From Rugosibacter sp. (GTDB lineage: Bacteria > Pseudomonadota > Gammaproteobacteria > Burkholderiales > Rhodocyclaceae), in contig SCUZ01000063.1 of NCBI GenBank assembly GCA_004322535.1, positions 5,021 to 69,020 of the forward strand: a DNA stretch of 64,000 bases, given 5' to 3'. The notes below the pieces were generated by a model. The model was given only the letters and a program-made list of their open reading frames with translations, was not told the origin of the DNA and ran no database searches. Below, one piece after another: positions 11,121-50,900 of this stretch (positions are counted from its first letter, which is position 1; each line of letters begins with the position of its first letter). The position numbers and the translations under genes are program-made.

Positions 11121-11138
11121 TCAGTCTTCCTGAGACTC

Positions 11139-12992
11139 TCAAAAAGTCGGCGCTGGTGACACGGCACGCAGAGGCGAGCAGGCATACAGCACCGCGTCAG
11201 GAAGGACAGCCAGCGGCGCAATGCTCGGGATCAGCTGTGTTGCCACCACCCAATCCACTATCGGATCAGCGCACAACGTCAGGCGACGGGACGCACCCTC
11301 TACCAATACCCCACGCCGCTGCCACTCGGTGAACTTCTCCTGCGAAAACACCACGCCAATGCCCTGCGCCTTGCTCCAATAATTGGCGGTATGCAGGGTC
11401 AGCCAGACTGTCAATTCCCGTTCCGGCCAGACCACAATATCGCCGCTCTGGATGTATTTGACGAATGGATGGGGTGACTGGCGGCTGTTCAGATAACTCG
11501 CTTCCATAAGCCGCAATGGCTCCGGACGCTTATCCCAGTATGCGAACACCCAGATCAGCAGCCCTGCGATAACAATTGGCATCATCTTCATCGCCAACAA
11601 CAGCATATTTTTCTGGCCAAACAGCCATGCCAACAACAACGGCAGTGGCCACATGCTCCCCGCTACAAGACCATGCAGCCAAAGAGCCTCTGGCCACCAA
11701 GGCGTAATAAAACGCGCACCGGCAATATCAAGCTCCACGATGAATCCCGGCAGCGCCACAAGCCAGAGCGCAATCATCACTACCCAAACCGTCTTGCGCC
11801 AGGAGCAAGCCCTTTCCGCGAGCATTACGAGATAATGCCTGGGCACAAGACTCGCCCCGCAGATTAGCCAGACAATGGGTTGAAGGAATGCGTCATCCAG
11901 TGCCATCAGTGCAAGCACACTACCAATCAGCAAAGGCACGACACGAAAAGTGGCTGATGCACATTGAATCACATCCAGCAAGGCAAAACCCGCGACCGGA
12001 ATCGCCAGCCAGAACACCCGCCAGGGTTGCCCCTGCACCACAATTTCGAGTGGCAGCCAATAGGCAGAAACCAGCGCCAGCAGCAACCCGCCACAAGTCA
12101 GCGCAAGCAGTCGCGCATACAGTGGTCGCAGTCGTTGGCTACCGGCACGTGCACCGGCGAGCAGTCCGGCCAGCACAGTAAAATACACCGGTAGCCGAGT
12201 GTTATCAGGCGACTTGAAAAGAATATCCGACGTGGCGCGCAGATAATCCAGCCACTCGCCGCCCATCAGGCGCCAGCGCGGAGCATCTAAATTGAGCATA
12301 CCAATAGCTATCAAAGCCAGCGTGGGGAGTAACGTCAGCGCAAGCGCCTGGCGCATCGGCAGACGGGTAAGTACAATCAGCACCAAGGGCCAGATACCCA
12401 GCAAAGGATGCAAAAGACATGACAATAGCGCAACCCCGCTGGCCCACCACGTCCTGCCGACGGCCAGCAGTCCTACTGCTATGACGCCGGCTGGCATGGC
12501 CCACGAGCGCGCCGTGGCGAAGTTTTCATTGAGCACAAAAACTGATGCGTTGGGCGAATAACTTACTGATAACATCACGCCGAACAGCACCGCAAAGCGC
12601 CCCGCCAGCGTGTCGCCACGCTCATTAGCCAGCATCGTGCGTGAAAGCGCAAACAACGCCGCAACCCACAGCGCACCGCCTGAAAGCACGACCAATCGCG
12701 CGGCGACATCCAGCCCCAGCACACGCACCAGCTCGCCATAGACTGGGGTGAACAGGCTAAGACTGCCTTGCGAACCAAAGCGGAAGAACAGATCGTTGGC
12801 TAGCGCCTCGGGATAAATCCAGTGCGCAGCGATCAGCCCATACACGCGCGCATCGTGCCAGATGCCTTGATAGGGATGATTAAGCAGCCAGAACAGGAAA
12901 GCCAGCAGCAGCAAGCTGCCTGTTGCCCAGGGGCCGTGCCGTATCAGCAGAGCCGACTTTTCAGTCGCTTTTTCAGCCGCCCTGGACGACAT
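11139..12992 (-). CDS. Large polytopic membrane protein (possible glycosyltransferase-C-like); function unknown
   Basis: 617 aa with many TM segments. Its last 8 codons plus the stop come from a copy of the 25-nt repeat, and a second copy sits near its 5' end. Confidence 0.55.
   Translation of the reverse strand: MSSRAAEKATEKSALLIRHGPWATGSLLLLAFLFWLLNHPYQGIWHDARVYGLIAAHWIYPEALANDLFFRFGSQGSLSLFTPVYGELVRVLGLDVAARLVVLSGGALWVAALFALSRTMLANERGDTLAGRFAVLFGVMLSVSYSPNASVFVLNENFATARSWAMPAGVIAVGLLAVGRTWWASGVALLSCLLHPLLGIWPLVLIVLTRLPMRQALALTLLPTLALIAIGMLNLDAPRWRLMGGEWLDYLRATSDILFKSPDNTRLPVYFTVLAGLLAGARAGSQRLRPLYARLLALTCGGLLLALVSAYWLPLEIVVQGQPWRVFWLAIPVAGFALLDVIQCASATFRVVPLLIGSVLALMALDDAFLQPIVWLICGASLVPRHYLVMLAERACSWRKTVWVVMIALWLVALPGFIVELDIAGARFITPWWPEALWLHGLVAGSMWPLPLLLAWLFGQKNMLLLAMKMMPIVIAGLLIWVFAYWDKRPEPLRLMEASYLNSRQSPHPFVKYIQSGDIVVWPERELTVWLTLHTANYWSKAQGIGVVFSQEKFTEWQRRGVLVEGASRRLTLCADPIVDWVVATQLIPSIAPLAVLPDAVLYACSPLRAVSPAPTF
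11142..11166 (+). repeat. 25-nt dispersed repeat, forward copy, 23/25
   Basis: aaaagtcggcgctggtgacacggca. Its antisense encodes the last residues AVSPAPTF plus the stop of the 617-aa membrane protein. Confidence 0.9.
12937..12961 (-). repeat. 25-nt dispersed repeat, reverse copy, 22/25
   Basis: tgccgtatcagcagagccgactttt. Lies in the 5' end of the 617-aa membrane-protein gene (EKSALLIRH). Confidence 0.75.
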
Positions 12993-13881
12993 GCATGAAC
13001 GCCGTTTCCAGCGATAGCGTCGGTTTAACCTCGATCACGGCATGCCCGGCAGCTTCCAGTGCATGCAGGGTTGGCCACAGTGCGGTGCGCGGCACTTCGA
13101 TCACCCAGCGGCCGCCGGGTTCTGGCTGCATGCCGGTCAACACCACGGCCGCGCCCTGGCTGCGCACCAGCACGCGATCATCCTCGCCTGCCAACTCGGC
13201 CGGTGAGCGCACAGCGCGCAGTTCGCCCTTGTGGATCAGGCCAAAGCGGTCGGCCAGGCGTTCGACATCGTGCAGCACATGCGAAGTCAAAAAAATCGTG
13301 CCGCCCTGCTGCCGGTAGTCGGCGAGGATATCCACTACATCACGGCGGCCGATCGGGTCGAGGCCAGACAGCGGCTCGTCGAGAATCAACAGGCGCGGCT
13401 GCACCGCCAGCGCATGCGCCAGCGCCGTGCGCTGCGCCATGCCTTTGGAAAACCCGCGCACGGTTTTATTGGCGACCTCGCCCAGACCAAGGCGCTCAAG
13501 CCATTGCATGCAGTGCGCCTTTTGATTCGCCCGCTGTTTCCCCATTTGCCGCTTGTGCAATGTCAGCCCCATGCCAAGAATTTCCAGCGGCGTCAGATAA
13601 TCCGGCAGACTGGGGTTTTCCGGCACATAGCCGAGGCCCTTGCGCGCAGCGCTATTCAGCACGTCGACGCCAAACAGGGCGGCATTGCCCTGCGATGGGC
13701 GCATCACGCCGGTAAGGATCTTGATCAGCGTGCTCTTGCCCGCACCATTCGGGCCGATGAAGCCAAACACTTCGCCCTCGGCAACGGTTAATGAAACGCC
13801 CTTCAATGCCTCAAACGGCGGCGATGCCCAGCGGCGCGGGTAGGTTTTGCGCAGGTCGTGGATGTCTATGGCATGAGTCAT
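12973..13881 (-). CDS. ABC transporter ATP-binding protein
   Basis: Walker A GPNGAGKST, signature-like FSKGMAQR, Walker B LLILDEP. Confidence 0.9.
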   Translation of the reverse strand: MTHAIDIHDLRKTYPRRWASPPFEALKGVSLTVAEGEVFGFIGPNGAGKSTLIKILTGVMRPSQGNAALFGVDVLNSAARKGLGYVPENPSLPDYLTPLEILGMGLTLHKRQMGKQRANQKAHCMQWLERLGLGEVANKTVRGFSKGMAQRTALAHALAVQPRLLILDEPLSGLDPIGRRDVVDILADYRQQGGTIFLTSHVLHDVERLADRFGLIHKGELRAVRSPAELAGEDDRVLVRSQGAAVVLTGMQPEPGGRWVIEVPRTALWPTLHALEAAGHAVIEVKPTLSLETAFMHVVQGG

Positions 13882-14726
13882 GATGGCGGAGGTGATGTAC
13901 GTAAAGCGATGTTGCCCTGCCGGTCGAAACCAAAGCCGAAACCGAATGGATCTTGCGGCAGCGCGGGGAGAATCCCGGAATTAACCAGTTCCTGCAGGTT
14001 GGGTACGGGCGCGCCGAAGCGCTCATGGTAACTTTCCGCTGCCATTTTCAGCTGCTGCAATTGGCGCAAACGCGCTACCCGCTGTTCGAGATAGACGCGA
14101 AAATCCTTACGCCGCGCTTCTTTAACCATCGCCTCGACGATGCGAATCGCCAGCTCGGTATCCTGCGCTTTATCCGCCCAGCGCGCGGCCATGTTCTGCA
14201 TGGTCAGTTGCTGGTCGGGGTCGGGCAGTTTTAATGCGGCTTCACGCATCCAGGCAGCAGCGCCTGCCGGATCGTGTTTGTAATACCACTGATTGAAGCC
14301 GTAAAAAAACGCGGGCTGGTAATCGAAAAATCGCACGCGGCTGGCACGCGCGAGAATCGTTTGCGTCGCATCCACTTCGCCATACTGAGGCAGAATCGCG
14401 AAGGCTATGTAGTAGTTATCTTCATGCGCGGGATTGAGCCAGGACACATCTTTTTGCACTTTGCCGAGAATGGCGTAATCCTCGGGTTTCATTTTCTCGG
14501 TGGAGACAACCAGGGCGCGAATCGCCGCGATGTTGGCTGCCAGATAACGGTCGCCCATGGCCAGGAACACTTGCACGAATAACGGCAAGGCCACTTGCAT
14601 CTCGACGACAACCATCTGCCGTGGCGCAGATTTCAACCGCTGCGTGATGGCGGCAAAAGTGAGTGCCAAAAGCACCGCCATGATGGCGACCGGCCATTGT
14701 TTGCGCAAACTGGTCACGATATTCAC
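13878..14726 (-). CDS. Hypothetical membrane-anchored/periplasmic protein
   Basis: 282 aa with an N-terminal TM/signal anchor. ATGA-coupled to the ABC ATPase. GTG start. No motif recognised. Confidence 0.5.
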   Translation of the reverse strand: MNIVTSLRKQWPVAIMAVLLALTFAAITQRLKSAPRQMVVVEMQVALPLFVQVFLAMGDRYLAANIAAIRALVVSTEKMKPEDYAILGKVQKDVSWLNPAHEDNYYIAFAILPQYGEVDATQTILARASRVRFFDYQPAFFYGFNQWYYKHDPAGAAAWMREAALKLPDPDQQLTMQNMAARWADKAQDTELAIRIVEAMVKEARRKDFRVYLEQRVARLRQLQQLKMAAESYHERFGAPVPNLQELVNSGILPALPQDPFGFGFGFDRQGNIALRTSPPPS

Positions 14727-14732
14727 TCTATC

Positions 14733-14757
14733 CGCCGTCTCATGAGCGCCGACTATT
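14733..14757 (-). repeat. 25-nt dispersed repeat, reverse copy, 21/25
   Basis: cgccgtctcatgagcgccgactatt. Intergenic. Confidence 0.6.
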
Positions 14758-14765
14758 CACGCTGG

Positions 14766-15566
14766 TTATTCAAAATCCCGGCAGGTGAAGGTCATCACCG
14801 CCAGGGTGAGCAGCAGTGCGGCGTAACTTGCCGCCATCAATAAACCCAACTCGACCGCCTGACTCGCAGGTGCCAGGTCGTACATCGGCCATGCCCGAAA
14901 ATCAAGCCGCGACAGATCAGGTAGCACCCATTGAATGGCCTCAATGACCGGCGCCAAACGCATCAATGCCTGGTCGCCGTCCGCCCCCCTGGCCAGATAC
15001 TCGGCCACCGCGCCCAGGCTCTTGCCACCCACGGCAAACGCCAGGCCCAGCGCCAAAGGCAGCATCGGCACGGTAGAGAAGGTGGAAACCCACAGCGCAA
15101 AGGCTGCAACCACCGCTGCATCAATCCACAACCCGGCTACGGTGCTCCAGTAGGGCAAACCAAGAACTACCGAAAAACCCTGCGCGTAACCTTTGCCCAA
15201 ACCCAGCACCACTACCCAGAGCAAAAGCCCGAGCAGCAAGGCTGCCAGGGCCAGCAGCCCGAGCACGCCCAGATAGCGGCCGACAATATAGCGGCCACGA
15301 GGCACTGGATAAGTGAGTGAAAACAACACCGTGCGCCGCTCGATTTCACGCGCGACCAGCTCTTGCACCCAGAACAGTGAAAACAAAATCAGCGTGATAC
15401 GCAGGCCAGACAAACCCACATCCAGCGCCACCGTCTGCGGTTGACGCGGAGAAAACGACGCGGAAAGATACGCGACCCCCATCAGCAAAGCACCGAGAAT
15501 CAGGATGGACTGAATACTCCGGCTACGCAGCCCGGCACGTCCGGCGGAAAGCATGAACTGCCACAT
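14766..15566 (-). CDS. ABC-2-type permease-like membrane protein
   Basis: 266 aa with 6 hydrophobic segments; first gene of the exporter cluster. Confidence 0.6.
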   Translation of the reverse strand: MWQFMLSAGRAGLRSRSIQSILILGALLMGVAYLSASFSPRQPQTVALDVGLSGLRITLILFSLFWVQELVAREIERRTVLFSLTYPVPRGRYIVGRYLGVLGLLALAALLLGLLLWVVVLGLGKGYAQGFSVVLGLPYWSTVAGLWIDAAVVAAFALWVSTFSTVPMLPLALGLAFAVGGKSLGAVAEYLARGADGDQALMRLAPVIEAIQWVLPDLSRLDFRAWPMYDLAPASQAVELGLLMAASYAALLLTLAVMTFTCRDFE

Positions 15567-15585
15567 GGCGTCACCTTAAGGAAAA

Positions 15586-15609
15586 AGAGCGCACCAGTGG
15601 GTGCGCTCT
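15586..15609 (-). terminator. Rho-independent terminator after the pilin pair
   Basis: Perfect 10-bp stem AGAGCGCACC (15586-15595) / GGTGCGCTCT (15600-15609) with a 4-nt loop. On the minus strand it is followed by TTTTTCC. Confidence 0.8.
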
Positions 15610-15632
15610 TTTCTAATGAAAAACAGCCTTAA

Positions 15633-16076
15633 TTACGAGGAGGAGGCAGTCGTCGCCAAGCCGTTTGCAGTCGTCACGTTAGCACCAGTGCACCCAGTAG
15701 TGGCACAGGTACCAGACTCAGCAATCCCGCCACCCGCACTTGAACCAATGAACGTCTTATTACCCTTTTTAGAACCGGAAGCCACAGCAAATGCAACGCC
15801 TGAAACTTCGTTGAAGCTTACAATCGTGTTTGCAGAACACTGCATATCAAAACCTGTTCTAACAAAAACCGGCGTCGCTACCGCGACACCAGCACCTCCA
15901 TTAATCAGCACCTTGGCGGCAACCCCGCCATTGCAGGCACATAGTTCACCAGTTGGCCCGGTTGAAGAGCTAGGTGCCGTAACATTCGCATTTGTGCCGG
16001 AGCCATCACAGGCCGCAGCAAACGCGCCTGCCGAGAAGAAGCTGGAGATCAAACCAATCACAAGTATCTTTTTCAT
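15633..16076 (-). CDS. Secreted Cys-rich Gly/Thr/Ala/Ser-rich protein; candidate detached pilin globular domain (PilA-C-like)
   Basis: Sec signal MKKILVIGLISSFFSAGAFAAA and six Cys. AAAGGA RBS. Begins 16 nt after the short pilin stop. Confidence 0.55.
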   Translation of the reverse strand: MKKILVIGLISSFFSAGAFAAACDGSGTNANVTAPSSSTGPTGELCACNGGVAAKVLINGGAGVAVATPVFVRTGFDMQCSANTIVSFNEVSGVAFAVASGSKKGNKTFIGSSAGGGIAESGTCATTGCTGANVTTANGLATTASSS

Positions 16077-16092
16077 TTGAATGTCCTTTGAA

Positions 16093-16272
16093 TTAGTTAG
16101 CGTTAGCGAGTGCAGAAGTCAGCAGATTTTTCGCATCCGACTGTGCGGCCTTGTTCTCGCCCTTCTTGGTGTACTCGGTGAACTGCGGAATCGCAATCGC
16201 GGCCAGAATGCCGATAATTGCCACGACAATCATCAGCTCGATCAGGGTAAAACCCTTTTGCAGCTTGTTCAT
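16093..16272 (-). CDS. Truncated type IVa pilin (59-aa prepilin, 52-aa predicted mature protein)
   Basis: [31 protein letters not shown], a class III signal with Gly-1, Phe+1 and Glu+5. AAGGAG RBS upstream of ATG 16272. The track start at 16290 is rejected. Confidence 0.85.
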
Positions 16273-16322
16273 ATGTAATCTCCTTTGCAAAGAAATGCGA
16301 CGGATGCCGCTACGATGGATAA

Positions 16323-16338
16323 AGCACAGGCCATGCCA
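16323..16338 (-). promoter_or_regulatory. Sigma-54 (-24/-12) promoter for the short pilin
   Basis: The minus strand reads TGGCATggcctGTGCT, with GG and GC at the exact TGGCAC-N5-TTGCW spacing. It ends about 50 nt upstream of the pilin ATG. Confidence 0.6.
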
Positions 16339-16460: not shown

Positions 16461-18083
16461 TTACGTCAATAGATCCGCCTCATTCACGGCGTCTATTTGC
16501 TCAGATTCAAGAAACTGCTCGGCATAACGTTGATAAACGCCTTGCTTGAAAAAAATATCAAAGAGATCGGGATCAATGTGGCCGTTCTTCTTGAAATTGG
16601 CGAGAATCTTCATCGCCTGCGAGAGCTTCATGCCATTCTTGTAGGGCCGGTCGCGCGCGGTGAGTGCCTCGAAAATGTCGGCAATCCCCATGGTGCGCGC
16701 CTGCACGCTCATTTGCTCGCGCGTGAGGCCCTTGGGATAACCTTTGCCATCCATACGCTCGTGATGGCCACCAGCGTATTCAGGTACATTTTTCAAATGC
16801 TTGGGCCAGGGTAATTGTTCCAGCATCTTGTTGGTGGCGACGATGTGATAGTTGATGGTTTCGCGTTCTTTTTGCGTTAGCGTGCCAGAGCGGATGGTGA
16901 GATTTTCTATTTCTTCTGCGGTAAGAAACTCAGTCTGCAAGCCATCCACATTCCGCCATTCCCGCTCAGTGCCGATCGTGCGCACGCGTTGTTGATCGCT
17001 TGCAGCCATGGATTCACAACCGATATTCGCCTGACGCAGAAAAGCACGGTCTGCATCCAACGCACGCAGTTGTTCAGCCAGCGTGCTCTGCACGCGGGCT
17101 TCGGCTGATGCATCGGTTTTTGCGCGCAGGGCTAATTGCTGGCGCAAGGCGGTAATTTCGGCATCGCGCTTTAATACCTCAAAGCGGGTATCAACCAAAT
17201 GAATGCGATCAAAAATAGTTTGCAGTTTGGTGGCTTTATCGACCACATGCACAGGCGTGGTGACTTTGCCGCAATCGTGTAACAAGCCGGCAATTTTTAG
17301 CTCGTAACGATCCTGGTCATTCATGGTAAACGCAGCTAATGGGCCTGTCGTGGTGGCATTCACGGCTTCGGCCAGCATCATGGTTAGCGCCGGCACTCGC
17401 TGGCAGTGGCCGCCGGTATAGGGTGATTTTTCGTCAATCGCCAGATTGATGAGCCTGATGAATGATTCGAAAAGCTCTTCTTGCTGGTTGATTAACTGTC
17501 GGGTAGTCAGCGCGATGGCGGCTTGTGATGCAAGCGACTCAGCCAGGCTTTGATCGGCTGCGGAAAAGGCAATCACCTCTCTTTTGACCGGATCGAACGC
17601 ATTAATCAGTTGCAGCACGCCAATGAGTTCGTCTTCGTGATTGACCATCGGTACCGTGAGGAAAGATTGCGAGCGATAGCCTGTTTGCTCGTCAAACGCA
17701 CGCGTGCCGGAAAAATCAAAGCCTTCTTCCATATACGCATCAGCGATATTGATCGTCTTGATATGGATGGCGGCATACGCGGCTACCATCGCGGTATTGG
17801 GCCGGCCTTTACTGTTAATGAGGGGCAGATCAGGGAAAGTAACCGGCTGCCCTGTCGTGCCACCCATCGAAATATTTAATGAGTCAGTGCGCATGATCTC
17901 AAAACGCAAGGCTGATCGATCTTCTGTCAAGAGATAAAGCGTGCCGCCGTCAGCATGAGTGATGGTTTTGGCAGCGACCAGGATGGCCTCAATCAGACGA
18001 TGAATATCGTGCTCTTTCGACAGCGACGCTCCAATGATGTTGAGTTGTTCCAGACGCGGAAAGAGTTTATTGTCTTTTTTCAT
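16461..18083 (-). CDS. GAF-domain HD-GYP cyclic-dinucleotide phosphodiesterase
   Basis: N-terminal GAF (..TGYRSQSFLTVPMVNHEDELIGVLQLIN) and C-terminal HD-GYP (LLHDCGK ... GGHHERMDGKGYP). Start moved to ATG 18083, 10 nt after the ATPase stop. Confidence 0.88.
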   Translation of the reverse strand: MKKDNKLFPRLEQLNIIGASLSKEHDIHRLIEAILVAAKTITHADGGTLYLLTEDRSALRFEIMRTDSLNISMGGTTGQPVTFPDLPLINSKGRPNTAMVAAYAAIHIKTINIADAYMEEGFDFSGTRAFDEQTGYRSQSFLTVPMVNHEDELIGVLQLINAFDPVKREVIAFSAADQSLAESLASQAAIALTTRQLINQQEELFESFIRLINLAIDEKSPYTGGHCQRVPALTMMLAEAVNATTTGPLAAFTMNDQDRYELKIAGLLHDCGKVTTPVHVVDKATKLQTIFDRIHLVDTRFEVLKRDAEITALRQQLALRAKTDASAEARVQSTLAEQLRALDADRAFLRQANIGCESMAASDQQRVRTIGTEREWRNVDGLQTEFLTAEEIENLTIRSGTLTQKERETINYHIVATNKMLEQLPWPKHLKNVPEYAGGHHERMDGKGYPKGLTREQMSVQARTMGIADIFEALTARDRPYKNGMKLSQAMKILANFKKNGHIDPDLFDIFFKQGVYQRYAEQFLESEQIDAVNEADLLT

Positions 18084-18093
18084 AGTGAGCGCC

Positions 18094-20469
18094 TTATTTG
18101 ATGCATACCGCACGTACCTGCTTGACGTCTGTCACGCCTTGCAGAGCTTTTTCCAGACCATCCATTTTCAACGTCAGCATGCCGTCGTCAAGTGCTTGCG
18201 AAAATAGCTGGGTGACGCGGGCATGCTCTTGAATCAGTTTTTTCAAAGGCTCGGTGCCTATCATTAGCTCATGTAAGCCCGCGCGCCCCTTGTAACCGGT
18301 TCCCCCACAGACATCACATCCTTTGGCACGATAAAACACAAGATGTCCTTCCTTGCCATAAGCCTTGATCAGGCGCGCCAATGTCGCATCGTAAGCCGCG
18401 TGAAAATCCGTTTTGAAGGCCTCTGTATTCATCAGCTCAGTGCAGTATTCGGTCATGAACAGCCTGACCTCGTCAGGCTCAGGGACATACGCCTCCTTGC
18501 ACTTGCAAAGCCGTTTGGCCAGGCGCTGAGCAAGAATGCCAAGCAAGGCATCGGAGAAATTAAACGGGTCCATACCCATATCGAGCAGACGGATGATGGA
18601 TTCTGGCGCGCTGTTAGTGTGTAGCGTAGCAAACACCAAATGGCCGGTAAGCGAGGCTTCGATACCGATGCTGGTGGTTTCGGCATCACGCATTTCACCG
18701 ACCATGATGATGTCCGGGTCGGCACGCAAGAAAGCCTTCATGACCGTGGGAAAATCCATCACCTTCTTGTTCACCTGTACTTGACGCAGGCCTTTCTGGG
18801 TGATTTCCACCGGGTCTTCAGCGGTCCATATTTTGGTGTCAACTGTATTCAAGTAACCCAACACCGAGTGCAGTGTAGTGGTTTTGCCGGAACCCGTCGG
18901 GCCGCAAACAAAAAAGAGGCCGTAGGGTTTGGCGATGGTTGCCTTGAGTTTTTCCAGGTTGGCTGGCAGGACACCCAGCTTATCGAGCGGGATGGGCTCA
19001 CCCCCGGCAAGAATCCGCATCACCACATCTTCAACGCCACCTGTAGAGGGAATCGTTGCTACCCGCAATTCAATATCCAGCGGGCCATATTTCTTGAACT
19101 TGATCTTGCCATCTTGCGGCTTGCGGCGTTCGGCAATATCAAGGTCGCACATGATTTTCAAACGTGCGACCATGGCACTGCGGTAACTGGCTGGCACTTC
19201 GATGTATTTAACTAACGTGCCATCCTTGCGAAAACGAATCAGCACTTTATCCTTGCCCAGGCCAGGCTCGATGTGGATGTCCGATGCCCCCTGCTGATAA
19301 GCATCGATAATGATTTTATTCACCAGTTTGACAAGCTCATTATCTGCTGCTGCCGAAATTTCGAGTCCCCCGCCTTCGGCTTCCATCTCATCCTGGTCAA
19401 GCGTAGCGAGCATATCGCCCACTGAACTATCGTCGGTAAACCCGGGCACTCCGCTCGCGCCAAAAAGCTGATCAAGGGTTTGGCGAAATTCGTGATGTGA
19501 CGTGACACGATAGTCAATCTTGCCCCGCGGAAAAATATTCTTCACTACTCGCGCGCCCATCACCTGCTCGGGGTCTGTACAAACAACCACAATGCCTCCT
19601 GCCCCTTCTTCAACAGGCGCCCACTGATTTTGCTGCAGGTATTCCCATTTTAGATTTTTGAGTAAATCGACAGGCTTGATGCGATCGCTTCTGAATGGCT
19701 CATAAGGCACACCAAAGAACTTGGCTAGTGCAACACCCAACATACCTGGCTTAACCTGAAACTCGTTGATCAGCACTTCTTCCAAGTCAAGATTTTTACG
19801 TCGAGCTGTACGCTGTGCTAACTCAAGCTCTTGTGCAGAAATCACTGCATCGGCGATGAGAAAGTCGTATTTTGTTTTCACCGCCTGAACTAACTTGTTG
19901 CGCTGAGAAAACGCAATCGCGAGTGTTTCGCATAAGCTCTTGATACCCTCCTCAGCTACCCTCGAAAAAGGCGCTCCATCTTTAGTATTAAGTATCTGCA
20001 CCACACCGATCAGATCATTACTTGGTACATCAATGATCGGTGCAACAAGCATCTGCTTGGTGCGATAGCCTGTACGTTTATCGACTTCCTTCAAAAATCG
20101 GAGCAAGGGACTGATCGCGTTGAGCTCCGTTTCGTCATACACATCGCGAATATTTACAATACTTCTGGAAAGCGCGACGTGTCCCGCAATGCTTTGCTCG
20201 GAAATAGGCAGACGCAAATCCTTTAATGTATTCAGTCCTGTTTTTACTTTCGAGACAATCGATGCTTTATCTTCGCCAACAGCGTAAATAGTTAAGCGAT
20301 CCGCATTAAACAGGCCACATACATCGACTGAAAGCTCCAGCATGAGTTCATCAATATCTGATGCCGAATGAATTCTGTTAGTCACCGTCTGCAGATTCTT
20401 CAAGAAAACCAGGCGGCTTTCGCCTTCTGCTCCCGGTCCATCAATTTTTTTGTTCACTAGGGTATTCAT
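18094..20469 (-). CDS. GAF-domain-fused GspE/PilB-family secretion/pilus ATPase
   Basis: 791 aa. N-terminal GAF (IAGHVA..TGYRTKQMLVAPI..IGVVQILN), a GspE_N-like region, Walker A GPTGSGKTTT, IIMVGEMRD, the His box TGHLVFATLHTN, and CKCK...CDVCGGTGYKGR. Confidence 0.88.
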   Translation of the reverse strand: MNTLVNKKIDGPGAEGESRLVFLKNLQTVTNRIHSASDIDELMLELSVDVCGLFNADRLTIYAVGEDKASIVSKVKTGLNTLKDLRLPISEQSIAGHVALSRSIVNIRDVYDETELNAISPLLRFLKEVDKRTGYRTKQMLVAPIIDVPSNDLIGVVQILNTKDGAPFSRVAEEGIKSLCETLAIAFSQRNKLVQAVKTKYDFLIADAVISAQELELAQRTARRKNLDLEEVLINEFQVKPGMLGVALAKFFGVPYEPFRSDRIKPVDLLKNLKWEYLQQNQWAPVEEGAGGIVVVCTDPEQVMGARVVKNIFPRGKIDYRVTSHHEFRQTLDQLFGASGVPGFTDDSSVGDMLATLDQDEMEAEGGGLEISAAADNELVKLVNKIIIDAYQQGASDIHIEPGLGKDKVLIRFRKDGTLVKYIEVPASYRSAMVARLKIMCDLDIAERRKPQDGKIKFKKYGPLDIELRVATIPSTGGVEDVVMRILAGGEPIPLDKLGVLPANLEKLKATIAKPYGLFFVCGPTGSGKTTTLHSVLGYLNTVDTKIWTAEDPVEITQKGLRQVQVNKKVMDFPTVMKAFLRADPDIIMVGEMRDAETTSIGIEASLTGHLVFATLHTNSAPESIIRLLDMGMDPFNFSDALLGILAQRLAKRLCKCKEAYVPEPDEVRLFMTEYCTELMNTEAFKTDFHAAYDATLARLIKAYGKEGHLVFYRAKGCDVCGGTGYKGRAGLHELMIGTEPLKKLIQEHARVTQLFSQALDDGMLTLKMDGLEKALQGVTDVKQVRAVCIK

Positions 20470-20617
20470 TTAATAATTTCCAGAGAAGCCATCTCGTCGC
20501 ATCGATCTCGCTCAAAGATGTTACTCAAAAAGCCAACTAGCCTGCTGGAGTCACCATGCCCTATGGCGAAAATGAGTTTTATCGCAAGCACGGCTTCAGA
20601 AATGAGTGTCGAATAGT

Positions 20618-21382
20618 TCATATTTGAAATATTTGATGTCCTTGTAAAATTCGCAAATGATATGCACCGCTATAAGCCGCCAGCTCCTGCATCGTCATTT
20701 CGATTTGCCCGGGTTTCAAGTGGGTAATAAAAATCTCTGCTTCATGCTGCCACTGGACTAGCTCTTTCATCAACAAACTAGGGCACAGATGCAGCGACTT
20801 AATGGCAAGTTCTTTTTCCTGATCAGGAAAAGCGCATTCGATGATCAAATAACTCAGGTTTTGAATTTTATTTACCACCGTCCAAAATTCAGGGCAAGGA
20901 CCGGTATCACCTGAAAAAACCAGGCTTGCATTGCCAGAATCAAGCTGATATCCCACCGCAGGCACGGTATGGTTCGCAGGTAGCGGGGTAATCATGCGGC
21001 CCTTGATCGTCACAGTTTCTCCCACAAGAATCGGCGAGTAAGCAAGGAATGGTTTATCGTGTGGCATCTGGCTGAAGTCTGGCCAAATTAGCCAATTAAA
21101 AATATGCTCGCGCAGAATACGAATGGTGGCTTCGGTTGCATGAATGATCAGCGGTCGATCCCGCATATCGCCAACGGCGTCAACAATGAAAGCCAACGAT
21201 GTCACATGGTCCAAGTGAGAATGTGTAATAAACACATGATCGATTTGCTTTAACTCGGCAATGGATAAATCGCCAACACCTGTACCTGCATCAATCAGGA
21301 TGTCATGATCAACCAAAAATGACGTTGTCCGTAGATGATGGCCACCTATCCCGCCACTACACCCGAGCACACGTATTTTCAT
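20618..21382 (-). CDS. Class II 3',5'-cyclic-nucleotide phosphodiesterase (MBL fold)
   Basis: MKIRVLGCSGGIGG...ITHSHLDHVTSLAFIV, close to the class II cAMP-PDE signature HxHLDH. Start moved to ATG 21382. Confidence 0.75.
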   Translation of the reverse strand: MKIRVLGCSGGIGGHHLRTTSFLVDHDILIDAGTGVGDLSIAELKQIDHVFITHSHLDHVTSLAFIVDAVGDMRDRPLIIHATEATIRILREHIFNWLIWPDFSQMPHDKPFLAYSPILVGETVTIKGRMITPLPANHTVPAVGYQLDSGNASLVFSGDTGPCPEFWTVVNKIQNLSYLIIECAFPDQEKELAIKSLHLCPSLLMKELVQWQHEAEIFITHLKPGQIEMTMQELAAYSGAYHLRILQGHQIFQI

Positions 21383-21502
21383 GTCAATTATCGCTAGTCG
21401 ATTGACCAACGCAGGTTGAAAGGTTCTGCAATGAGGCGATAAGTACTAATCCAACAAATGTCACATACTTTTGGCCAGAATCCGTTGATTGAAGCGCTGC
21501 CA

Positions 21503-22303
21503 TCAATTTTTCAAAAAGAAGGTCATTTTGATCCCCGCCAAATCAATAACATCGTAGTCTCTGAGCGGCTGCGCCTGGGCACCGATCAGTGTGCCATTGA
21601 CCGCAGGAAAACTTGCGCCTTCGACGTGGGTAATAAAATAGCCTTGGGGTAAGCGCGCAATCACCGCCACTTGAATCTTGGGCTTACCCAGCGTGGTAAG
21701 ACTCTTGGTTAGCTCCAATTCCTTACCCGCATTACTACCCGAAAGAATTTGGATCGCACCCAATGGCAGCGGTGCAACAGGTTCGGTCGCAGCAAGAGTT
21801 GAAGCTACAGGCGTTGGGGTGGCATGATCTACCGGGTCCGGCGCAACAACAGGTTGTGCCATGACTTCGTTATTTGGCGCCGGGGGTGCAGCATTTGTTA
21901 CTGCACTTGCTGCGTTATGGCTTTCAGCCGATGGCGTCATGGCAGCAGCCATGGCCACTGTGCCAGGGCGAAAAATCAAGGTGCGCTCAAAATCATCATT
22001 GCGGGGAGAGTGCACAACGTCACTTACATACTTAAGGCTGTATTTACCTAACGTGATGACATCCCCAGTCTGTAAAAAATGTTTTTTGATTGACTGGTTA
22101 TTGACGAAAGTACCATTTGTACTATTGAGGTCTTCCAGGAAGGAATCGTTATAAATAGTAATAATGGCGGCGTGCTCGCCAGAGATGGCCAGATTATCAA
22201 TCTGAATGTCGTTATGCGGTTTGCGACCAATCGTCGTTCGCTCTTTGGTGAGCGGGATTTCTTTAAGAGTCGCACCATCAATGCTAAGTATGAGTTTTGA
22301 CAT
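21503..22303 (-). CDS. Protein with two FHA domains
   Basis: N-terminal FHA (TTIGRKPHNDIQIDNLAISGEHAAI...STNGTFVNNQ), a Pro/Ala-rich linker, and a C-terminal FHA-like domain (TTLGKPKIQ...VNGTLI). Confidence 0.8.
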   Translation of the reverse strand: MSKLILSIDGATLKEIPLTKERTTIGRKPHNDIQIDNLAISGEHAAIITIYNDSFLEDLNSTNGTFVNNQSIKKHFLQTGDVITLGKYSLKYVSDVVHSPRNDDFERTLIFRPGTVAMAAAMTPSAESHNAASAVTNAAPPAPNNEVMAQPVVAPDPVDHATPTPVASTLAATEPVAPLPLGAIQILSGSNAGKELELTKSLTTLGKPKIQVAVIARLPQGYFITHVEGASFPAVNGTLIGAQAQPLRDYDVIDLAGIKMTFFLKN

Positions 22304-22328
22304 TCTTTTATTCCTTCATGACTCTACA

Positions 22329-23156
22329 TTACTTGAAACAAGTTAAGAGGCGATGCCACCAGCTAACAGAAACCGGGCTCGGGATCGGTTCTTTTACCTT
22401 GACCAGAATGACAGAAACATTATCGCACCCGCCATTGTCATTTGCTGATTGTATCAACTGCGACGCACACAAATCGAGATTAGCCGACAACGCATTCAGC
22501 GTCATGCCAATCTCTTTATCCGACACCATATCATTGAGTCCGTCAGAACAAAATAGATAAACATCCTCACTCATTACCTCAAAATCGTGGATTTCAGCAG
22601 AGACTTGCGCATCAATGCCTACAGCGCGCGTCACCAGATTTTTATTTCGCGACAATTGTGCCTGCTCACGAGTCAATAATCCACTGGCGATTTTTTCTTC
22701 CAGCCACGAGTGATCCCGGGTGATTTGAATAAATTCGTTATCTCGCCATCGATACGCACGAGAGTCACCAATATGCGCCACGGTCAGCTGATTGCCTTGA
22801 AACACCCCAATGACGAGTGTAGTTCCCATGCCGGCATACTGTGCCTGGCTTTGTGCCGCCGAAAAGATAGCCCGATTGGTTTCGGTAACCCCGATGTCCA
22901 ATGCGACGTGCGTCGAGGACAAGGCAGCGGCCAGCGTGGCCCCCACCTCACGCTTGGCAGCAGAATTTTCCAGCCACTTCCCTAGCATCGAGGTAGCCAT
23001 GCCGCTGGCAACTTCGCCTGCGTTATAGCCACCCATGCCATCGGCAAGGACGACAATGCCACATGCAGCGTTCGCCAAAACAGAATCCTCGTTATTTGAT
23101 CGAACCTTGCCTGCATCTGTCCGAGTGACTATTTCCAGCACGACATCACGCTGCAT
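22329..23156 (-). CDS. PP2C-family Ser/Thr protein phosphatase
   Basis: RSNNEDS...LADGMGG...CSDGLNDMV...DNGGCDNVSVILV, the PPM metal-binding motifs. Confidence 0.88.
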   Translation of the reverse strand: MQRDVVLEIVTRTDAGKVRSNNEDSVLANAACGIVVLADGMGGYNAGEVASGMATSMLGKWLENSAAKREVGATLAAALSSTHVALDIGVTETNRAIFSAAQSQAQYAGMGTTLVIGVFQGNQLTVAHIGDSRAYRWRDNEFIQITRDHSWLEEKIASGLLTREQAQLSRNKNLVTRAVGIDAQVSAEIHDFEVMSEDVYLFCSDGLNDMVSDKEIGMTLNALSANLDLCASQLIQSANDNGGCDNVSVILVKVKEPIPSPVSVSWWHRLLTCFK

Positions 23157-23269: not shown

Positions 23270-23316
23270 CTGAAAACAAAAAAGCCGCTCCGGCATGCGC
23301 TGGAGCGGCTTTTTTC
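23270..23316 (-). terminator. Rho-independent terminator after sucD
   Basis: 9-bp stem AGCCGCTCC (23283-23291) / GGAGCGGCT (23302-23310), flanked by an A-run and a T-run, so potentially bidirectional. Confidence 0.75.
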
Positions 23317-23324
23317 AGTTCTCG

Positions 23325-25537: not shown

Positions 25538-26116
25538 TTAGTTGTCGGCCTTATTTTGTACATACCATCGCGGATAGAAGCGCCGCACGGTCTCCGAAGA
25601 AATTTCCAGCGCATGGCATTTATCGAGCTGAACAGGTTGTCTTGTGACTCGATCGTCCCAATCCATGACGCCATCCTCGCGCTGAAGACTAGCCATGGTC
25701 TGGAAAGCAGCGGTGGGCAACGCGCCCAGCAGCTCGGTAACATGTGAGCAGCCACGCACCCCGCCAAAGCGCTCAGTCACCGCACGACGAAAGCCTTTGA
25801 GTAAGCTCAAGCCAATCAATTGCCGATACACCGGTGCAATCGTGTCGCAACCGCCGGGATAGGGCACCGCATCTGAACTGGCAACTGCGTCGTGAATGGT
25901 CATGTTGAGATCCACGGTAACCCGCACGCGCATATCATGCAAAGGCTCGCCTTTAATGCGCACGCCCAGCGAAGGTGGCAGCGGATAATCCTTGTCTTTC
26001 AGATCAGTCATGCGTGCTTCAATATCCAGCATTCCATCTTCACGATGCCAGCATTCGATTTCGACGCGGCGAATATGAACTATTTTTCGAGAAACAGTGG
26101 GAGCAGGTAAAGGCAT
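25538..26116 (-). CDS. Conserved hypothetical protein (DUF2889-like; family assignment tentative)
   Basis: 192 aa, with ..RGCSHVTELLGALPTAAFQT.. ATG 26116 preferred over the TTG at 26122. Confidence 0.5.
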   Translation of the reverse strand: MPLPAPTVSRKIVHIRRVEIECWHREDGMLDIEARMTDLKDKDYPLPPSLGVRIKGEPLHDMRVRVTVDLNMTIHDAVASSDAVPYPGGCDTIAPVYRQLIGLSLLKGFRRAVTERFGGVRGCSHVTELLGALPTAAFQTMASLQREDGVMDWDDRVTRQPVQLDKCHALEISSETVRRFYPRWYVQNKADN

Positions 26117-26416
26117 GTGCAAACCAGGCAGACTGGGTAACTGAATGACTTAAGGGCGGGAAAGTGGATGGAATCTCAAAAATGGCTTGCAAGGGGTAGA
26201 GTGACAGCGACTTGAAGTGACTTGGCTGTCCCGCCCTTTTGTTGCGGTGCAAGATAATACCATGAGGCTTTACCATCCTGCTTGGCCTTGAACTCACAGC
26301 GTTTGCGTTTGTTATTGCCTGTGCTTCCCTCCCCGATTTCCCTCCCCATATCTTTCAATAGGATGAATTTGCTTTTATCCTGTTCACTGTTTTCTACCAA
26401 CCCAGACCAAAATGCC

Positions 26417-26997: not shown

Positions 26998-28158
26998 TCA
27001 GCGAGCGGCCTGTGCGCCGCGCATCAAGGCAGCCGCCTGACGATACGCGGCCAGCGCCTCGCCACGATGACCAGCCGCTTCAAGCACACGGGCGCGGTGT
27101 AAAAGTTCTTCTGCTGGATCAGCAGCAGCATTCATCTCCTTGGTGCTATTGCTGATTCTTTCAGTAGCCGTGCCAACTGCCGATCCAACCCTTGGCGTGG
27201 CATAACGCAGCCCCGCAGATTGCACCGCCGGGTTGCCACGCTGCGCTGAAATCATCAGGCCTGTGGCGGTGCGCGGCGCAGTCGTTCTGCTCACGGGCTT
27301 CTCTGCCTTGTGAATCGTCACCAGCGCATCGCGATACAGTTTTAATGCGGCGTCATGCTGCCCCGCCACTGCCATTTTCCTGGCCTGCTGCAACAACCTA
27401 TCGACACTATCCGATACGGGCTGCGAACGTATCGCCTGACCCCAGCTGCCCGCTGGCTGGGCAGCAATGGCAGCAAAATTTTTGCTGCCAGCGATCTCGC
27501 GGGCAATGATCACGTTATTGTTGCGCATCGCCCAACGCACCGCATTTTCGCCATTGTCATTATTGATCCCGCCTTGTGCTCCGGCTTTGAGCAAGGCAGT
27601 TGCAATCTCGGCCTGCCCTTCTCTTGCGGCCATCATGAGGGGTGTTGAACCATTCGGCGACAAGGCATTCACCTCAGCGCCCTGTGTCAGCAAATAGCGC
27701 ACAATGGCCTCGTGCCCGGCAAACGCGGCGTAGTGCAATGCAGACCATGCCTTACCCTGCCGACCGGGTTGCGCACCCTGTGCAATAAGCCAGCGCACGG
27801 CGTCAAGATGTCCCTTCCAGCTGGCATGCAACAAGGCGGTTTCACCATGCGCATTTACCGCATTGACATCTGCCCCGCGCGACAGAAACAACGCCATCAT
27901 GGAAATATTTCCTTCCCATGCGCCGATCATCAAGCCGCTGCCAATCAGGCTGCCTTCAAAATCCGGCGGCAGGCCAGTATCCAGCCATGCGCGCGCCTGC
28001 GCCACATCACCGCGCTCAATGGCAACCGAAAATGCGACGCGATCCGGCAGGCTGGTAGCCGAAGCAGGCGCGGTAGCAAACAGATTGGCCAGCGGATTGG
28101 CCAGCGCAGTAGACAATGTGGTCGCCAGAATGCACAGGCAGGCAGGCAGTTTTTTCAT
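26998..28158 (-). CDS. Secreted ankyrin-repeat protein with a helical (TPR-like) C-terminal region
   Basis: Signal peptide MKKLPACLCILATTLSTALA and at least 4 ANK repeats (GETALLHASWKGHLDAVRWLIAQGA; WSALHYAAFAGHEAIVRYLLTQGAEVN; GSTPLMMAAREGQAEIATALLKAGA). Confidence 0.8.
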   Translation of the reverse strand: MKKLPACLCILATTLSTALANPLANLFATAPASATSLPDRVAFSVAIERGDVAQARAWLDTGLPPDFEGSLIGSGLMIGAWEGNISMMALFLSRGADVNAVNAHGETALLHASWKGHLDAVRWLIAQGAQPGRQGKAWSALHYAAFAGHEAIVRYLLTQGAEVNALSPNGSTPLMMAAREGQAEIATALLKAGAQGGINNDNGENAVRWAMRNNNVIIAREIAGSKNFAAIAAQPAGSWGQAIRSQPVSDSVDRLLQQARKMAVAGQHDAALKLYRDALVTIHKAEKPVSRTTAPRTATGLMISAQRGNPAVQSAGLRYATPRVGSAVGTATERISNSTKEMNAAADPAEELLHRARVLEAAGHRGEALAAYRQAAALMRGAQAAR

Positions 28159-28253: not shown

Positions 28254-31200
28254 TCAGATTTCTGGCGCACGACGCAAGTCGAGCGTCATGGGGTAATCCG
28301 GATTGCGACCTTCACGCCTGACATGCAACGGGCCAGGGGTATGGCCGTGATTCCAGAAACGCGCCACGCGCCGTGCCTCTGCTTCATTCGCATTGACGGG
28401 GAACGTCTCGTAACTGCGCCCCCCAGGATGCACTACGTGATAAGTGCAACCGCCGATGGCACGCCCGCTCCAGGTATCGACCAGATCGAACACCAGCGGC
28501 GAATGTACGCCTATCATCGGATGCAAACCCGAAGGCGGCGCCCAGGCACGGTAACGCACGCCAGCGACATATTCACCGCGAATGCCGGTCGGGCTGAGTG
28601 GCAGCGGGCGACCATTGCAGGTAACAATATGGCGCGCGTCATTCATCTGGCGCACTTTGACCTGCAAGCGTTCCAGCGATGAATCGACGTACCGCGCCGT
28701 GCCACCAGCGCCGACTTCTTCGCCCAGCACATGCCAAGGCTCGATGGCCTGGCGCAATTCGATTTCAATATTATGCTGCACCACACTGCCAAAGCGCGGA
28801 AAACGAAATTCCAAAAACGGTGCAAACCATTCAAAATCGAAGGCATAACCGGCACGTTGTAAATCCTGGACGACATCGTGCAGATCTTGCGTGACAAAGT
28901 GCGGCAGCATGAAGCGGTCATGCAGCTCCGTGCCCCAGCGGGTCAGGCCGCCTTGATACGGTGCTTGCCAGAAACGCGCGACCAGCACCCGCAACAGCAG
29001 CATTTGCAGCAGGCTCATCTGCGCATGCGGTGGCATCTCGAACCCGCGAAATTCAAGCAGGCCCAGACGACCGGCCGAGCCATCGGGCGAATAGAGTTTA
29101 TCGATGCAGAATTCAGCGCGATGCGTGTTTCCGGACAGGTCAATCAACAAGTTGCGCAACAGGCGATCCACCAGCCAGGGCGCCAGGGTTTCCTCTCCGG
29201 GCTTTAGCCGCTCGGCCATTTGCTGAAAGGCGATTTCCAGTTCATACAGGCTCTCGTGCCGCGCCTCATCCACGCGCGGCGCCTGACTGGTCGGGCCGAT
29301 GAACATACCGGAAAACAGGTAGGACAATGCCGGATGATTCTGCCAATAGGTAATCAGGCTCATCAGCATATCCGGCCGCCGCAGGCAAGGTGAGTCAGCC
29401 GGCGTGGCTCCGCCCAGCGTGACATGATTGCCGCCACCCGTGCCGGTGTGACGGCCATCAAGCATGAATTTTTCGGTGCCCAGCCGCGTCTGCCGCGCCA
29501 ATTCATACAATGTTTCCGTATTCTCGACCAGCTCTGGCCAAGAGTGCGCCGGATGAATATTCACTTCGATCACACCGGGGTCAGGCGTGATCCTGAATAC
29601 CTTGAGGCGTGGATCGTCAGGCGGCGGATAGCCTTCGATACGTATCGGCAACGATAGCGCAGCCGCCGTTTTTTCGATGGCATCGATCAGGTCAACAAAG
29701 CTTTCCAGCAATGGCACGGGCGGCAAGAAAACATGCAGTACGCCCTCGCGCACCTCGACACACAAAGCGGTATGCACAATCTCGTGGGGCGCGTAATGCT
29801 GCTTCGCCGTTTTCAGCGGACGCGCTGCACTGTGTAGTAATGACACAACATGAAGTTCACCCGGCGTATCGAAAGGATCACGGCCAAACTCGGGCTCCTT
29901 GTCTTCAGCCGCCACCTCAGGCAAGGAAGCCAGGGGCAAACGCAGACCCAGGGGAGAATCCCCCGAAACCAGATACAGGTGCTCGCGACGTAAAGGCCAC
30001 GGACTTGAGGAAAAGTCGGCACTGGTGATACGGCGATGCTTGCCACCAGCGGACTCGCCCTCTGCCTTCGATGAAAGCAGCAGCGCCTTGAGCGGCAACA
30101 CATAGCCTGCCACTTCGCCCAACCCTTTTTCAATCAGTCCAGCAATACGACGACGTTCACTGTCCAGCTTCAAATCAGTTGATAACGGATCAAAATTCTC
30201 TGGCCAACGCTGTTCCTGATCAATAGCATGAACCACATCCTCATAGGCCGGAATCACAAATCCGGTATCCAGCCCGAGTAATTTCGCGAGATGATGAATA
30301 AAGCGTTGCGCATCCCGCACGTTATGTTGTTTAGCGCCCGCCGTTACCGCCGTGGTTGCCAGCAGTTTCGGCTCATACCACAGCGGATTGCCGTCAACAC
30401 GCCAGTAGCAGCCCAGCGCCCAACGCGGCAGCGGCTCGCCGGGATACCACTTGCCCTGACCGAAATGCAGCAGCGCACCGGGTGCCAGCGTGTCCTTCAG
30501 GCGCACGAGCAACTCGCGCGATAACCCGCTTTTCTTTTCTGACAACGCGGTGAAGTTCCATTCCATGCCTTCCATATCGTCGATAGAAATAAAAGTGGGC
30601 TCACCACCCATCGTGAGCCTGACATCATTTTTCTTCAGCTCGGTATCCACCTGATGGCCAAGATCTTGAATCGCCTGCCATTGCACGTCGGTATAGGGCT
30701 TGGTGACACGTGGATCCTCATGAATGCGAGTGATCTGCATGGAAAAATCAAAGTGGGCTTCGCACTTTCCAGTCGCGCCAATCACCGGTGCAGCAGACGC
30801 CGGCATGGCGGTACATGCCAATGGAATATGGCCTTCGCCAGCTAACAGACCGGAGGTCGCATCAAGGCCAATCCAGCCAGCGCCAGGGATATATACCTCC
30901 GCCCAAGCATGCAGATCAGTGAAATCGACGGTTGTGCCGGACGGGCCATCAAGCGCCTTCATATCAGACACCAGTTGAATCAAATAACCCGAAGCAAAGC
31001 GCGCCGCCAGTCCGTAATGCCGCATCGCCTGCACAAGCAACCAGGCAGAATCGCGGCAGGAACCGCGTTTCAAATCAAGCGTCTGTTCGGGCGTCTGCAC
31101 CCCCGGCTCCAGACGCACGATATAGGCAATGTCGCGTTGCACACGCTGGTTGATCGCCACCAGCATGTCAATAGTACGCATTTTCTGGCTCAACAGATCG

Positions 31201-50859: not shown

Positions 50860-50900
50860 AACAGAATAAATACGGGAATGAGGCCCACGCGAATGCGCGG

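Follow-up and report, generated by a model that had tools for sequence, protein, structure and literature searches.

What would a pilus-type motor ATPase do among genes for nucleotide and phosphothreonine (pThr) signalling? The question is posed by five co-oriented open reading frames that span 16461-23156 on the minus strand of a 64-kb stretch of Rugosibacter sp. DNA (contig SCUZ01000063.1), the whole of which is called the window here. From first to last, they encode a PP2C-type phosphatase, an FHA protein, a cyclic nucleoside monophosphate (cNMP) phosphodiesterase, a PilB/GspE-type ATPase with an N-terminal GAF domain and a GAF-HD-GYP phosphodiesterase (Table 1). A preliminary description of the window, made from its sequence, had already placed the five co-oriented genes at these positions, had correctly stated that the HD-GYP gene starts 10 nt past the stop of the ATPase gene, and had proposed a motor coupled to cyclic mononucleotide, cyclic dinucleotide and pThr signalling. 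Our comparison with related genomes supports this coupling. We give about even credence to the following reading: Betaproteobacteria share a conserved signalling module, here in reduced form, through which cNMP and pThr gate an accessory pilus-extension ATPase of the PilB type, and the module lies immediately upstream of the major type IVa (T4a) pilin gene.

Scanning one genome per species with the single ATPase protein yielded 80 full-length loci, nearly all labelled Betaproteobacteria and with 62-83% ATPase identity. The presence of the other genes was assessed by tblastn with the window proteins against these 80 loci, counting only those with enough flanking sequence. The phosphodiesterase is present in 68 of 70 loci and the GAF-HD-GYP protein in 70 of 73, followed by the FHA protein (49/60) and the PP2C phosphatase (47/58). 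The gene arrangement, recurring in 80 loci from distinct species, is far beyond chance, and the neighbourhood search for co-occurring GAF-GspE, phosphodiesterase, FHA and PP2C genes thus found them conserved together. The carriers belong to Rhodocyclaceae, Sterolibacteriaceae, Gallionellaceae, Sideroxydans, Usitatibacteraceae and Oxalobacteraceae; the family is widespread, from iron oxidisers (Gallionella, Sideroxydans) through Rhodocyclales to soil Oxalobacteraceae, with distant members in Nitrospinota. Rugosibacter aromaticivorans has an ATPase 94% identical to the one in the window, and at least 120 clusters share 79% identity or more with the window ATPase; its N-terminal 365 residues retrieve 254 clusters (50% identity) at E <= 1e-30. 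More distant members, with about 30-34% identity in the N-terminus, come from Nitrospinota, often with two GAF domains, and from one Desulfobacterales genome. The Rugosibacter chromosome has the same gene order as the window from sucCD through the ABC-2 genes, and all five genes are under purifying selection relative to R. aromaticivorans, with dN/dS of 0.06-0.14 (PP2C 0.13, FHA 0.14, phosphodiesterase 0.065, ATPase 0.061, HD-GYP 0.072).

Most relatives carry a fuller cluster. The spacing between the FHA and phosphodiesterase genes is about 2-3 kb larger in most loci than in the window. In Sulfuritalea, a CHASE2 class III cyclase gene lies between these two, a CHASE2 kinase gene precedes the PP2C gene and a gene for a cNMP-binding/rhodanese protein precedes the ATPase gene. 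Across the loci, the CHASE2 adenylate cyclase was found in 49 of 62, the CHASE2 Ser/Thr kinase in 27 of 52 and the cNMP-binding/rhodanese protein in 29 of 70. The cyclase has Lys530, Thr604, Asn610 and Arg614; a Lys/Thr/Asn/Arg set is the pattern of class IIIb adenylate cyclases, the class to which the cluster cyclase is assigned by its residue pattern. All three genes are missing from the window, from Rugosibacter and from four other scattered lineages. No homologue of the kinase, the cyclase or the cNMP-binding protein was found anywhere in the 64 kb, and a search for their remnants in three intergenic gaps returned noise only. Since the nearest sister genera, and members throughout the class, have the full form, it is parsimonious to regard the window cluster as a reduced form whose kinase, cyclase and cNMP-binding/rhodanese genes were lost in the Rugosibacter lineage.

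The ATPase has the complete motor attributed to it in the preliminary description, and every motif could be located: the Asp box ERRKPQDG (aa 447), Walker A GPTGSGKT (aa 523), Walker B DPDIIMVGEMRD (aa 584), the His box TGHLVFATLH (aa 608) and, in the C-terminal domain, a tetracysteine zinc motif made up of CKC (aa 655) and CDVCG (aa 718). The first cysteine pair is CxC, not CxxC, and the inter-cysteine segment is longer than usual and poorly conserved (0.47). The Pfam T2SSE match scores 360 bits, and the core is the most conserved part of the protein, with 0.82-0.89 identity among 81 orthologues. Judged by its matches in the Protein Data Bank (PDB), the core is nearest to PilB structures (Myxococcus xanthus PilB, 3jc8, 1e-101; Geobacter metallireducens PilB, 5tsg, 1.6e-95), with EpsE/GspE slightly less near (EpsE, 4.7e-90). 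It misses the NCBIfam equivalog cutoffs of both PilB (TIGR02538, 451.5 vs 675.65 bits) and GspE (TIGR02533, 411.2 vs 630.25), and databases give the family generic names only.

A GAF domain is indeed fused to this GspE/PilB motor, as had been described, but an MshEN-like domain between the two had been overlooked. In the AlphaFold2 (AF2) model of residues 1-345, which has a predicted local distance difference test (pLDDT) value of 82.8, the MshEN-like region (aa 202-336) forms a helical bundle and an alpha/beta subdomain with a pLDDT of about 90. MshEN is the input for cyclic di-GMP (c-di-GMP) in MshE/PilB motors (PMC5013675). In the cluster ATPase, both 24-residue c-di-GMP motifs (RLGxxLLxxGLLxxxxLxxxLxxQ) are degenerate: alignment with the M. 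xanthus PilB N-terminus shows TKY and DLE in place of RLG, and A and F in place of Q. The family consensus likewise lacks RLG and Q, and NCBIfam NF053729, which describes the MshE-type c-di-GMP motif, does not match the cluster ATPase. The domain has kept the MshEN fold and lost the c-di-GMP-binding motifs. Metagenomic proteins with a GAF and an MshEN-like domain and no ATPase were also noted (P0121, P0123, P0126, P0128, P0130); some are about 410-425 aa long with a short unrelated tail, and one of 1003 aa has several MshEN-like repeats. The GAF plus MshEN-like module therefore seems to occur on its own as well.

The GAF domain of the ATPase resembles cNMP-binding GAF domains in sequence and, according to its model, in fold. 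Its PDB sequence matches are CyaB2 (1ykd, 7e-25, both GAF-A and GAF-B), PDE10A (2e-11) and PDE2A (5e-11), and the top Foldseek matches of its model are PmGH, PDE5A, CyaB2, PDE6, PDE2A, PDE10A and cAMP-bound Lcd1. The putative pocket elements SIAG, D130xxT133GYRT137 and N161xK..F168 are conserved: S93, G96, D130, G134, T137 and N161 are invariant across Betaproteobacteria and Nitrospinota, while A95, T133, R136 and F168 are at least 90% conserved in the same set. The GAF domain of the HD-GYP protein has a similar sequence relationship to cNMP-binding GAF domains (CyaB2 1.7e-11, PDE5 9e-11). Anabaena CyaB2 and the mammalian PDE2/5/6/10 GAF domains are therefore the nearest neighbours of both; those, however, are fused to cyclases or phosphodiesterases, and we found no characterised fusion to a secretion-type ATPase.

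Three known extension ATPases regulated by c-di-GMP share with the cluster ATPase a T2SSE/PilB-type hexameric motor, an N-terminal MshEN fold and, in the reading proposed here, control of the motor directly by a second messenger: V. cholerae MshE, M. xanthus PilB and P. aeruginosa PA14_29490. In contrast to these, the cluster ATPase adds a cNMP-type GAF domain in front, has degenerate c-di-GMP motifs and has no adjacent platform gene. Acinetobacter baylyi TfpB is a second extension motor that shares one type IV pilus (T4P) machine (PMC8213720). Like TfpB, the cluster ATPase is an extra PilB paralogue whose gene is not beside pilC, so that a platform would have to be shared; unlike the cluster ATPase, TfpB lacks a GAF domain. 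On the NCBIfam TfpB model, the cluster ATPase reaches 365 bits, below the cutoff of 850, so the ATPase is not a TfpB member.

The GAF-HD-GYP protein was recognised as such in the preliminary description, and Pfam finds both its GAF and HD domains, with the catalytic motifs LLHDCGK and HHExxDGxGYP intact (GGHHERMDGKGYP; HHERMDGKGYP). Its best PDB match is Persephonella PmGH (4mcw, 3.8e-26), followed by V-cGAP3 (5z7c, 1.3e-20). In Thermosynechococcus Tlr0485, also a GAF-HD-GYP protein, cAMP switches on c-di-GMP hydrolysis (bioRxiv 10.1101/2021.11.05.467447). Tlr0485 and PmGH have the same domain order as the cluster protein, which differs by an insert of about 105 aa in its catalytic domain; c-di-GMP and 3'3'-cGAMP are the candidate substrates of the cluster protein. 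The insert (aa 289-395), in which Ala, Arg, Gln and Leu are abundant, interrupts the catalytic domain after the HD motif and before HHExxDGxGYP, and it has no counterpart in PmGH or V-cGAP3. The product of 20618-21382 is predicted to be a class II-type cNMP phosphodiesterase on a metallo-beta-lactamase fold, in agreement with its earlier assignment: Pfam PF02112 (PDEase_II) scores 58.2 bits against a gathering threshold of 23.7, the class II signature HSHLDH is present (THSHLDH in the alignment), and yeast PDE1 (4ojv) is a weak match at 3.5e-7.

The FHA protein had been described as having two FHA domains, and Pfam sees one. The N-terminal domain (aa 14-94) is canonical, with the pThr-binding residues TIGRK...SGEH...STNG in an alignment of 51 orthologues. 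Beyond an Ala/Pro/Thr-rich linker, the C-terminal 85 aa (about aa 180-266) are conserved and FHA-like, aligning with the N-terminal domain in hhalign with a probability of 93% (E 3.4e-7). This second domain is degenerate, with neither SxxH nor S/TxNG. The NCBIfam TagH FHA model matches the protein at 3e-11. Pfam and NCBIfam agree on the PP2C phosphatase proposed for 22329-23156, which exceeds the Stp1/IreP cutoff (NF033484, 235.4 vs 230 bits). The kinase, PP2C and FHA triad beside a nanomachine ATPase in the fuller clusters is as in the type VI PpkA/PppA/Fha1 pathway. Unlike that pathway, the window has no type VI secretion genes, the cluster kinase, absent from the window, has a CHASE2 domain, and the FHA protein has its second, degenerate FHA-like domain.

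What links the ATPase to filaments is its position. A type IV pilin gene lies downstream in 39 of 65 loci and directly 3' of the HD-GYP gene in 25 of 54, and where a pilin is present, it mostly comes after the cluster and in the same orientation. Of 47 loci with a pilin, 37 have an ordinary major T4a pilin of 134-195 aa, with a PF00114 match in Sideroxydans. In the window, a 59-aa prepilin gene begins 188 nt past the HD-GYP stop; its Rugosibacter counterpart has an N_methyl domain, and the 59-aa pilin is probably the filament subunit on which the motor acts. Within about 10 kb of the window cluster there is no gene for a platform, secretin, PilMNOP, prepilin peptidase or kinase, in agreement with what had been stated earlier for the locus. 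The ATPase called an orphan on these grounds is thus unlinked to platform genes, but because the cluster adjoins a type IV pilin gene, both in the window and in the 39 loci above, it is not fully orphan.

The platform gene at 62785, noted earlier as the only one of GspF type and as a partner to be tested with the ATPase, is not a free partner: it belongs to a distinct MSHA-type locus that encodes a secretin and an ATPase of its own. This pilus/secretion locus (54872-63987, plus strand) stands beside a sigma-54 response regulator and runs off the end of the window. It encodes a relative of the XrtA/PEP-CTERM-associated ATPase family with an AAA_22 domain, a secretin that exceeds the NCBIfam cutoff for the MshL type, a TPR protein, an ATPase and a GspF-like platform. 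Its T2SSE ATPase (577 aa, 61021-62754) does have an MshE-type c-di-GMP motif at aa 19-70 (NF053729, 60 bits vs cutoff 38). The locus is self-contained and separate from the cluster.

If the cluster ATPase is a gated extension motor, cAMP, or less likely cGMP, would be made by the cluster cyclase and cleared by the phosphodiesterase. Binding of this cNMP to the ATPase GAF domain would relieve autoinhibition or promote hexamer engagement, and the motor would polymerise the adjacent pilin, with the platform, the alignment complex and the secretin supplied by genes at other sites. The same nucleotide would activate the GAF-HD-GYP protein and lower c-di-GMP (or 3'3'-cGAMP), so that one signal would be converted to a second that other receptors could read, for example the MSHA-type ATPase of the window with its c-di-GMP motif. 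As in the threonine-phosphorylation pathway of type VI secretion, the kinase/PP2C/FHA arm may make assembly or localisation depend on pThr. As the window cluster has no kinase, cyclase or cNMP-binding genes, its inputs would come from elsewhere in the genome.

A more specific version of this scheme, which we put forward tentatively, has a cAMP-gated motor in which the GAF domain replaces the c-di-GMP site of MshEN, together with a cAMP-activated HD-GYP protein. An extracellular cue sensed by the CHASE2 cyclase and kinase would then switch one pilus on directly, lower c-di-GMP and so switch off the second, c-di-GMP-dependent system of MSHA type, with pThr and FHA acting as a checkpoint. If true, the cluster would toggle between two filament machines by converting one messenger into another. 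Second-messenger control of pilus and type II secretion motors is known for c-di-GMP, through MshEN or the FimX/PilZ adaptors; cAMP control of pili and type II secretion acts on transcription. If a motor bears a cNMP-type sensor itself, filament assembly could in addition be gated directly by a cyclic mononucleotide, and the genes around this motor encode a cyclase, two phosphodiesterases and the triad of kinase, phosphatase and FHA protein. The preliminary description knew of no characterised system so composed, and our literature search likewise returned no study of GAF-fused PilB/GspE ATPases, of CHASE2, FHA or PP2C proteins with pili, or of this cluster; a full-text search gave no occurrence of the phrase 'GAF domain' for a 2024 review of PilB regulation.

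Several observations weigh against a gated pilus motor. The window encodes neither cyclase nor kinase, so that the proposed inputs are not encoded locally, and platform, PilM and prepilin peptidase genes are linked to the cluster in none of the loci examined. The pilin is absent or farther off in about 40% of loci. It is also missing from an Oxalobacteraceae variant, along with the PP2C and FHA genes. The identity of the GAF ligand is uncertain when read from sequence. Finally, the filament role is not proven, because the Nitrospinota relatives stand alone among unrelated genes. In the Oxalobacteraceae variant (L025; also L023, L026, L065, L071-L073 and L075), the cyclase, GAF-HD-GYP and phosphodiesterase genes are divergent from the ATPase gene, and downstream on the opposite strand lie genes for FecR, a TPS-domain protein and an ShlB-type two-partner-secretion protein. 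Many Nitrospinota members (L083, 10001-12307; L084, 10001-12844) have two GAF domains and a length of 900-1000 aa, and they are isolated among housekeeping genes such as gyrAB/topA or TonB/ExbBD.

The neighbours examined of these Nitrospinota members include no signalling or pilus genes, and such isolation would suit an ATPase that mainly senses nucleotides for signalling and does not drive a filament. It would pass on the cNMP status to other targets, much as M. xanthus PilB regulates exopolysaccharide production. The existence of stand-alone GAF/MshEN-like proteins (P0121, P0123 and P0126) also suggests that the N-terminal module can work independently, and there is precedent for PilB as a signalling protein (PMC5544727). 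However, the catalytic core is the most conserved part of the cluster ATPase, with all motor motifs intact, and the conserved position beside pilA favours a filament role; we consider a purely signalling ATPase unlikely.

The pilin locus of the window raises a further alternative, in which the ATPase is a secretion motor and a short pseudopilus, built from a split pilin of 59 aa and 147 aa, pushes out cargo or polysaccharide-associated proteins under the same signal gating. In the Rugosibacter/Sulfuritalea/Sterolibacteriaceae clade, the pilin is only 59-62 aa long, and in most of these loci the genes after it encode a small secreted partner and ABC-2 proteins. In the window, the short pilin gene is directly followed by one for a 147-aa secreted protein and then by ABC-2 exporter and Wzy-like genes, which would suit such a role. 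The ATPase also scores nearly as well with GspE as with PilB (411 vs 451 bits). The 147-aa protein has no Pfam, NCBIfam or PDB match, Geobacter PilA-C included, and its AlphaFold model computed without an alignment has a pLDDT of 40; among related loci, this partner is found with short pilins only. It is a putative analogue of PilA-C or of Azoarcus PilB, by position and size only.

Comparable arrangements are known from two genera. In Azoarcus BH72, pilAB includes a short prepilin, a sigma-54 promoter shown experimentally and dependence on PilR (PMC3262810), and Geobacter PilA-N/PilA-C have been described as a heterodimeric pilin (PMC11046646). Like the window, both combine a sigma-54 promoter with genes for a short prepilin and, after it, a small secreted partner. 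Where the window has the GAF-ATPase cluster upstream of the pilin, Azoarcus has pilSR (PMC3262810). The pilin locus of the window (9786-16338, minus strand) continues after the 147-aa gene with genes for two ABC-2 permeases, an ABC ATPase, a 617-aa protein without Pfam or NCBIfam match and a Wzy_C protein. We take this order to resemble that of Geobacter pilA-N/pilA-C and the xap polysaccharide exporter genes that follow them. In Geobacter, too, pilSR reportedly lies upstream of the pilin, and Gu et al. in 2021 are said to have ascribed a secretory role to PilA-N/PilA-C. Against a general secretion role, full-length major T4a pilins are present in 37 of the 47 pilin loci and no GspC/L/M or secretin gene is linked. 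The prevalence of normal T4a pilins makes the short-pilin setting a clade-specific special case. We therefore think it improbable that the ATPase is a secretion motor, while a secretion-pseudopilus motor within the short-pilin clade is plausible. In Sulfuritalea locus L004, TPR/GT41 genes resembling O-GlcNAc transferases (14186-16159 and 19606-22053) lie between the HD-GYP and short pilin genes and, a second time, after the ABC-2 genes, which hints at glycosylation of the pilin or its partner in some relatives.

The suspicion that the cluster is an AT-richer island is borne out modestly in composition, with a GC content of 49.4% against 53.9% in the rest of the window (4.5 points lower), and the precomputed annotation of the Rugosibacter phosphodiesterase orthologue includes Pfam PF23023 (Anti-Pycsar_Apyc1). 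Nevertheless, we rejected as highly improbable that the cluster has nothing to do with pili and is an island gained by horizontal transfer or a defence locus, because the GC content of the cluster follows that of the host from 46 to 69% in 45 loci (mean difference -1.4 points), sucCD flanks the cluster in the window, in Rugosibacter, in several other Rhodocyclales and in Gallionella loci, no integrase- or transposase-domain genes lie within about 10 kb, and the PADLOC defence models gave two weak partial matches, neither meaningful, with no Rfam RNA gene in the window.

Table 1. Positions of the cluster genes, ATPase domains and adjoining features in the window (Pfam domains unless stated otherwise).
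Feature	Position	Strand	Basis or remark
Terminator-like hairpin 3' of sucD	23275-23324		Rfam hairpin-type matches
Sigma-70-like site before PP2C	23264-23236		promoter scan
PP2C-type Ser/Thr phosphatase, Stp1/IreP family, 275 aa	22329..23156	-	first cluster gene; PP2C_2 5e-12
FHA protein, 266 aa	21503..22303	-	FHA 1.6e-20, aa 23-86
Metallo-beta-lactamase-fold class II-type cNMP phosphodiesterase (predicted), 254 aa	20618..21382	-	Lactamase_B_2 6e-18, PDEase_II 1e-15
GAF/MshEN-like/PilB-GspE ATPase, 791 aa	18094..20469	-	GAF aa 38-186, MshEN aa 252-339, T2SSE aa 375-785 (9e-108)
GAF domain of ATPase, cNMP-binding type (predicted), aa 26-190	19900..20394	-	sequence and fold neighbours
MshEN-like domain of ATPase, aa 198-340	19450..19878	-	MshEN PF05157, 32.9 bits vs gathering 23.1
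ATPase core, N2 and C-terminal domain, aa 376-791	18097..19344	-	motif positions
GAF-HD-GYP phosphodiesterase, 540 aa	16461..18083	-	GAF and split HD/HD_5
Sigma-54-type -24/-12 element TGGCATggcctGTGCT, before pilin gene, outside the five-gene unit	16323..16338	-	read from sequence
Short type IV prepilin, 59 aa	16093..16272	-	NCBIfam IV_pilin_GFxxxE, 42 bits vs cutoff 16.3
Signal-peptide protein, 147 aa, directly after short pilin	15633..16076	-	
Terminator-like hairpin after 147-aa gene	15583-15614		

Apart from the sigma-70-like site before the PP2C gene, the promoter and terminator scan gave nothing above chance, and the Rfam scan of the window found no riboswitch. Upstream of the cluster, Pfam identifies sucCD. 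Beyond sucCD lie genes for a DUF2889 protein (25538-26122) and an ankyrin-repeat protein (26998-28158), and then, on the minus strand, one for a 1117-aa protein with transglutaminase-N, transglutaminase-core and DUF2126 domains (28254-31607); the matching region in Rugosibacter has a circularly permuted ATP-grasp gene. Farther along, 49903-54803 on the minus strand holds a complete Mla lipid-transport operon (MlaF, MlaE, MlaD, an MlaA-like protein and MlaC) together with a further ABC ATPase gene.

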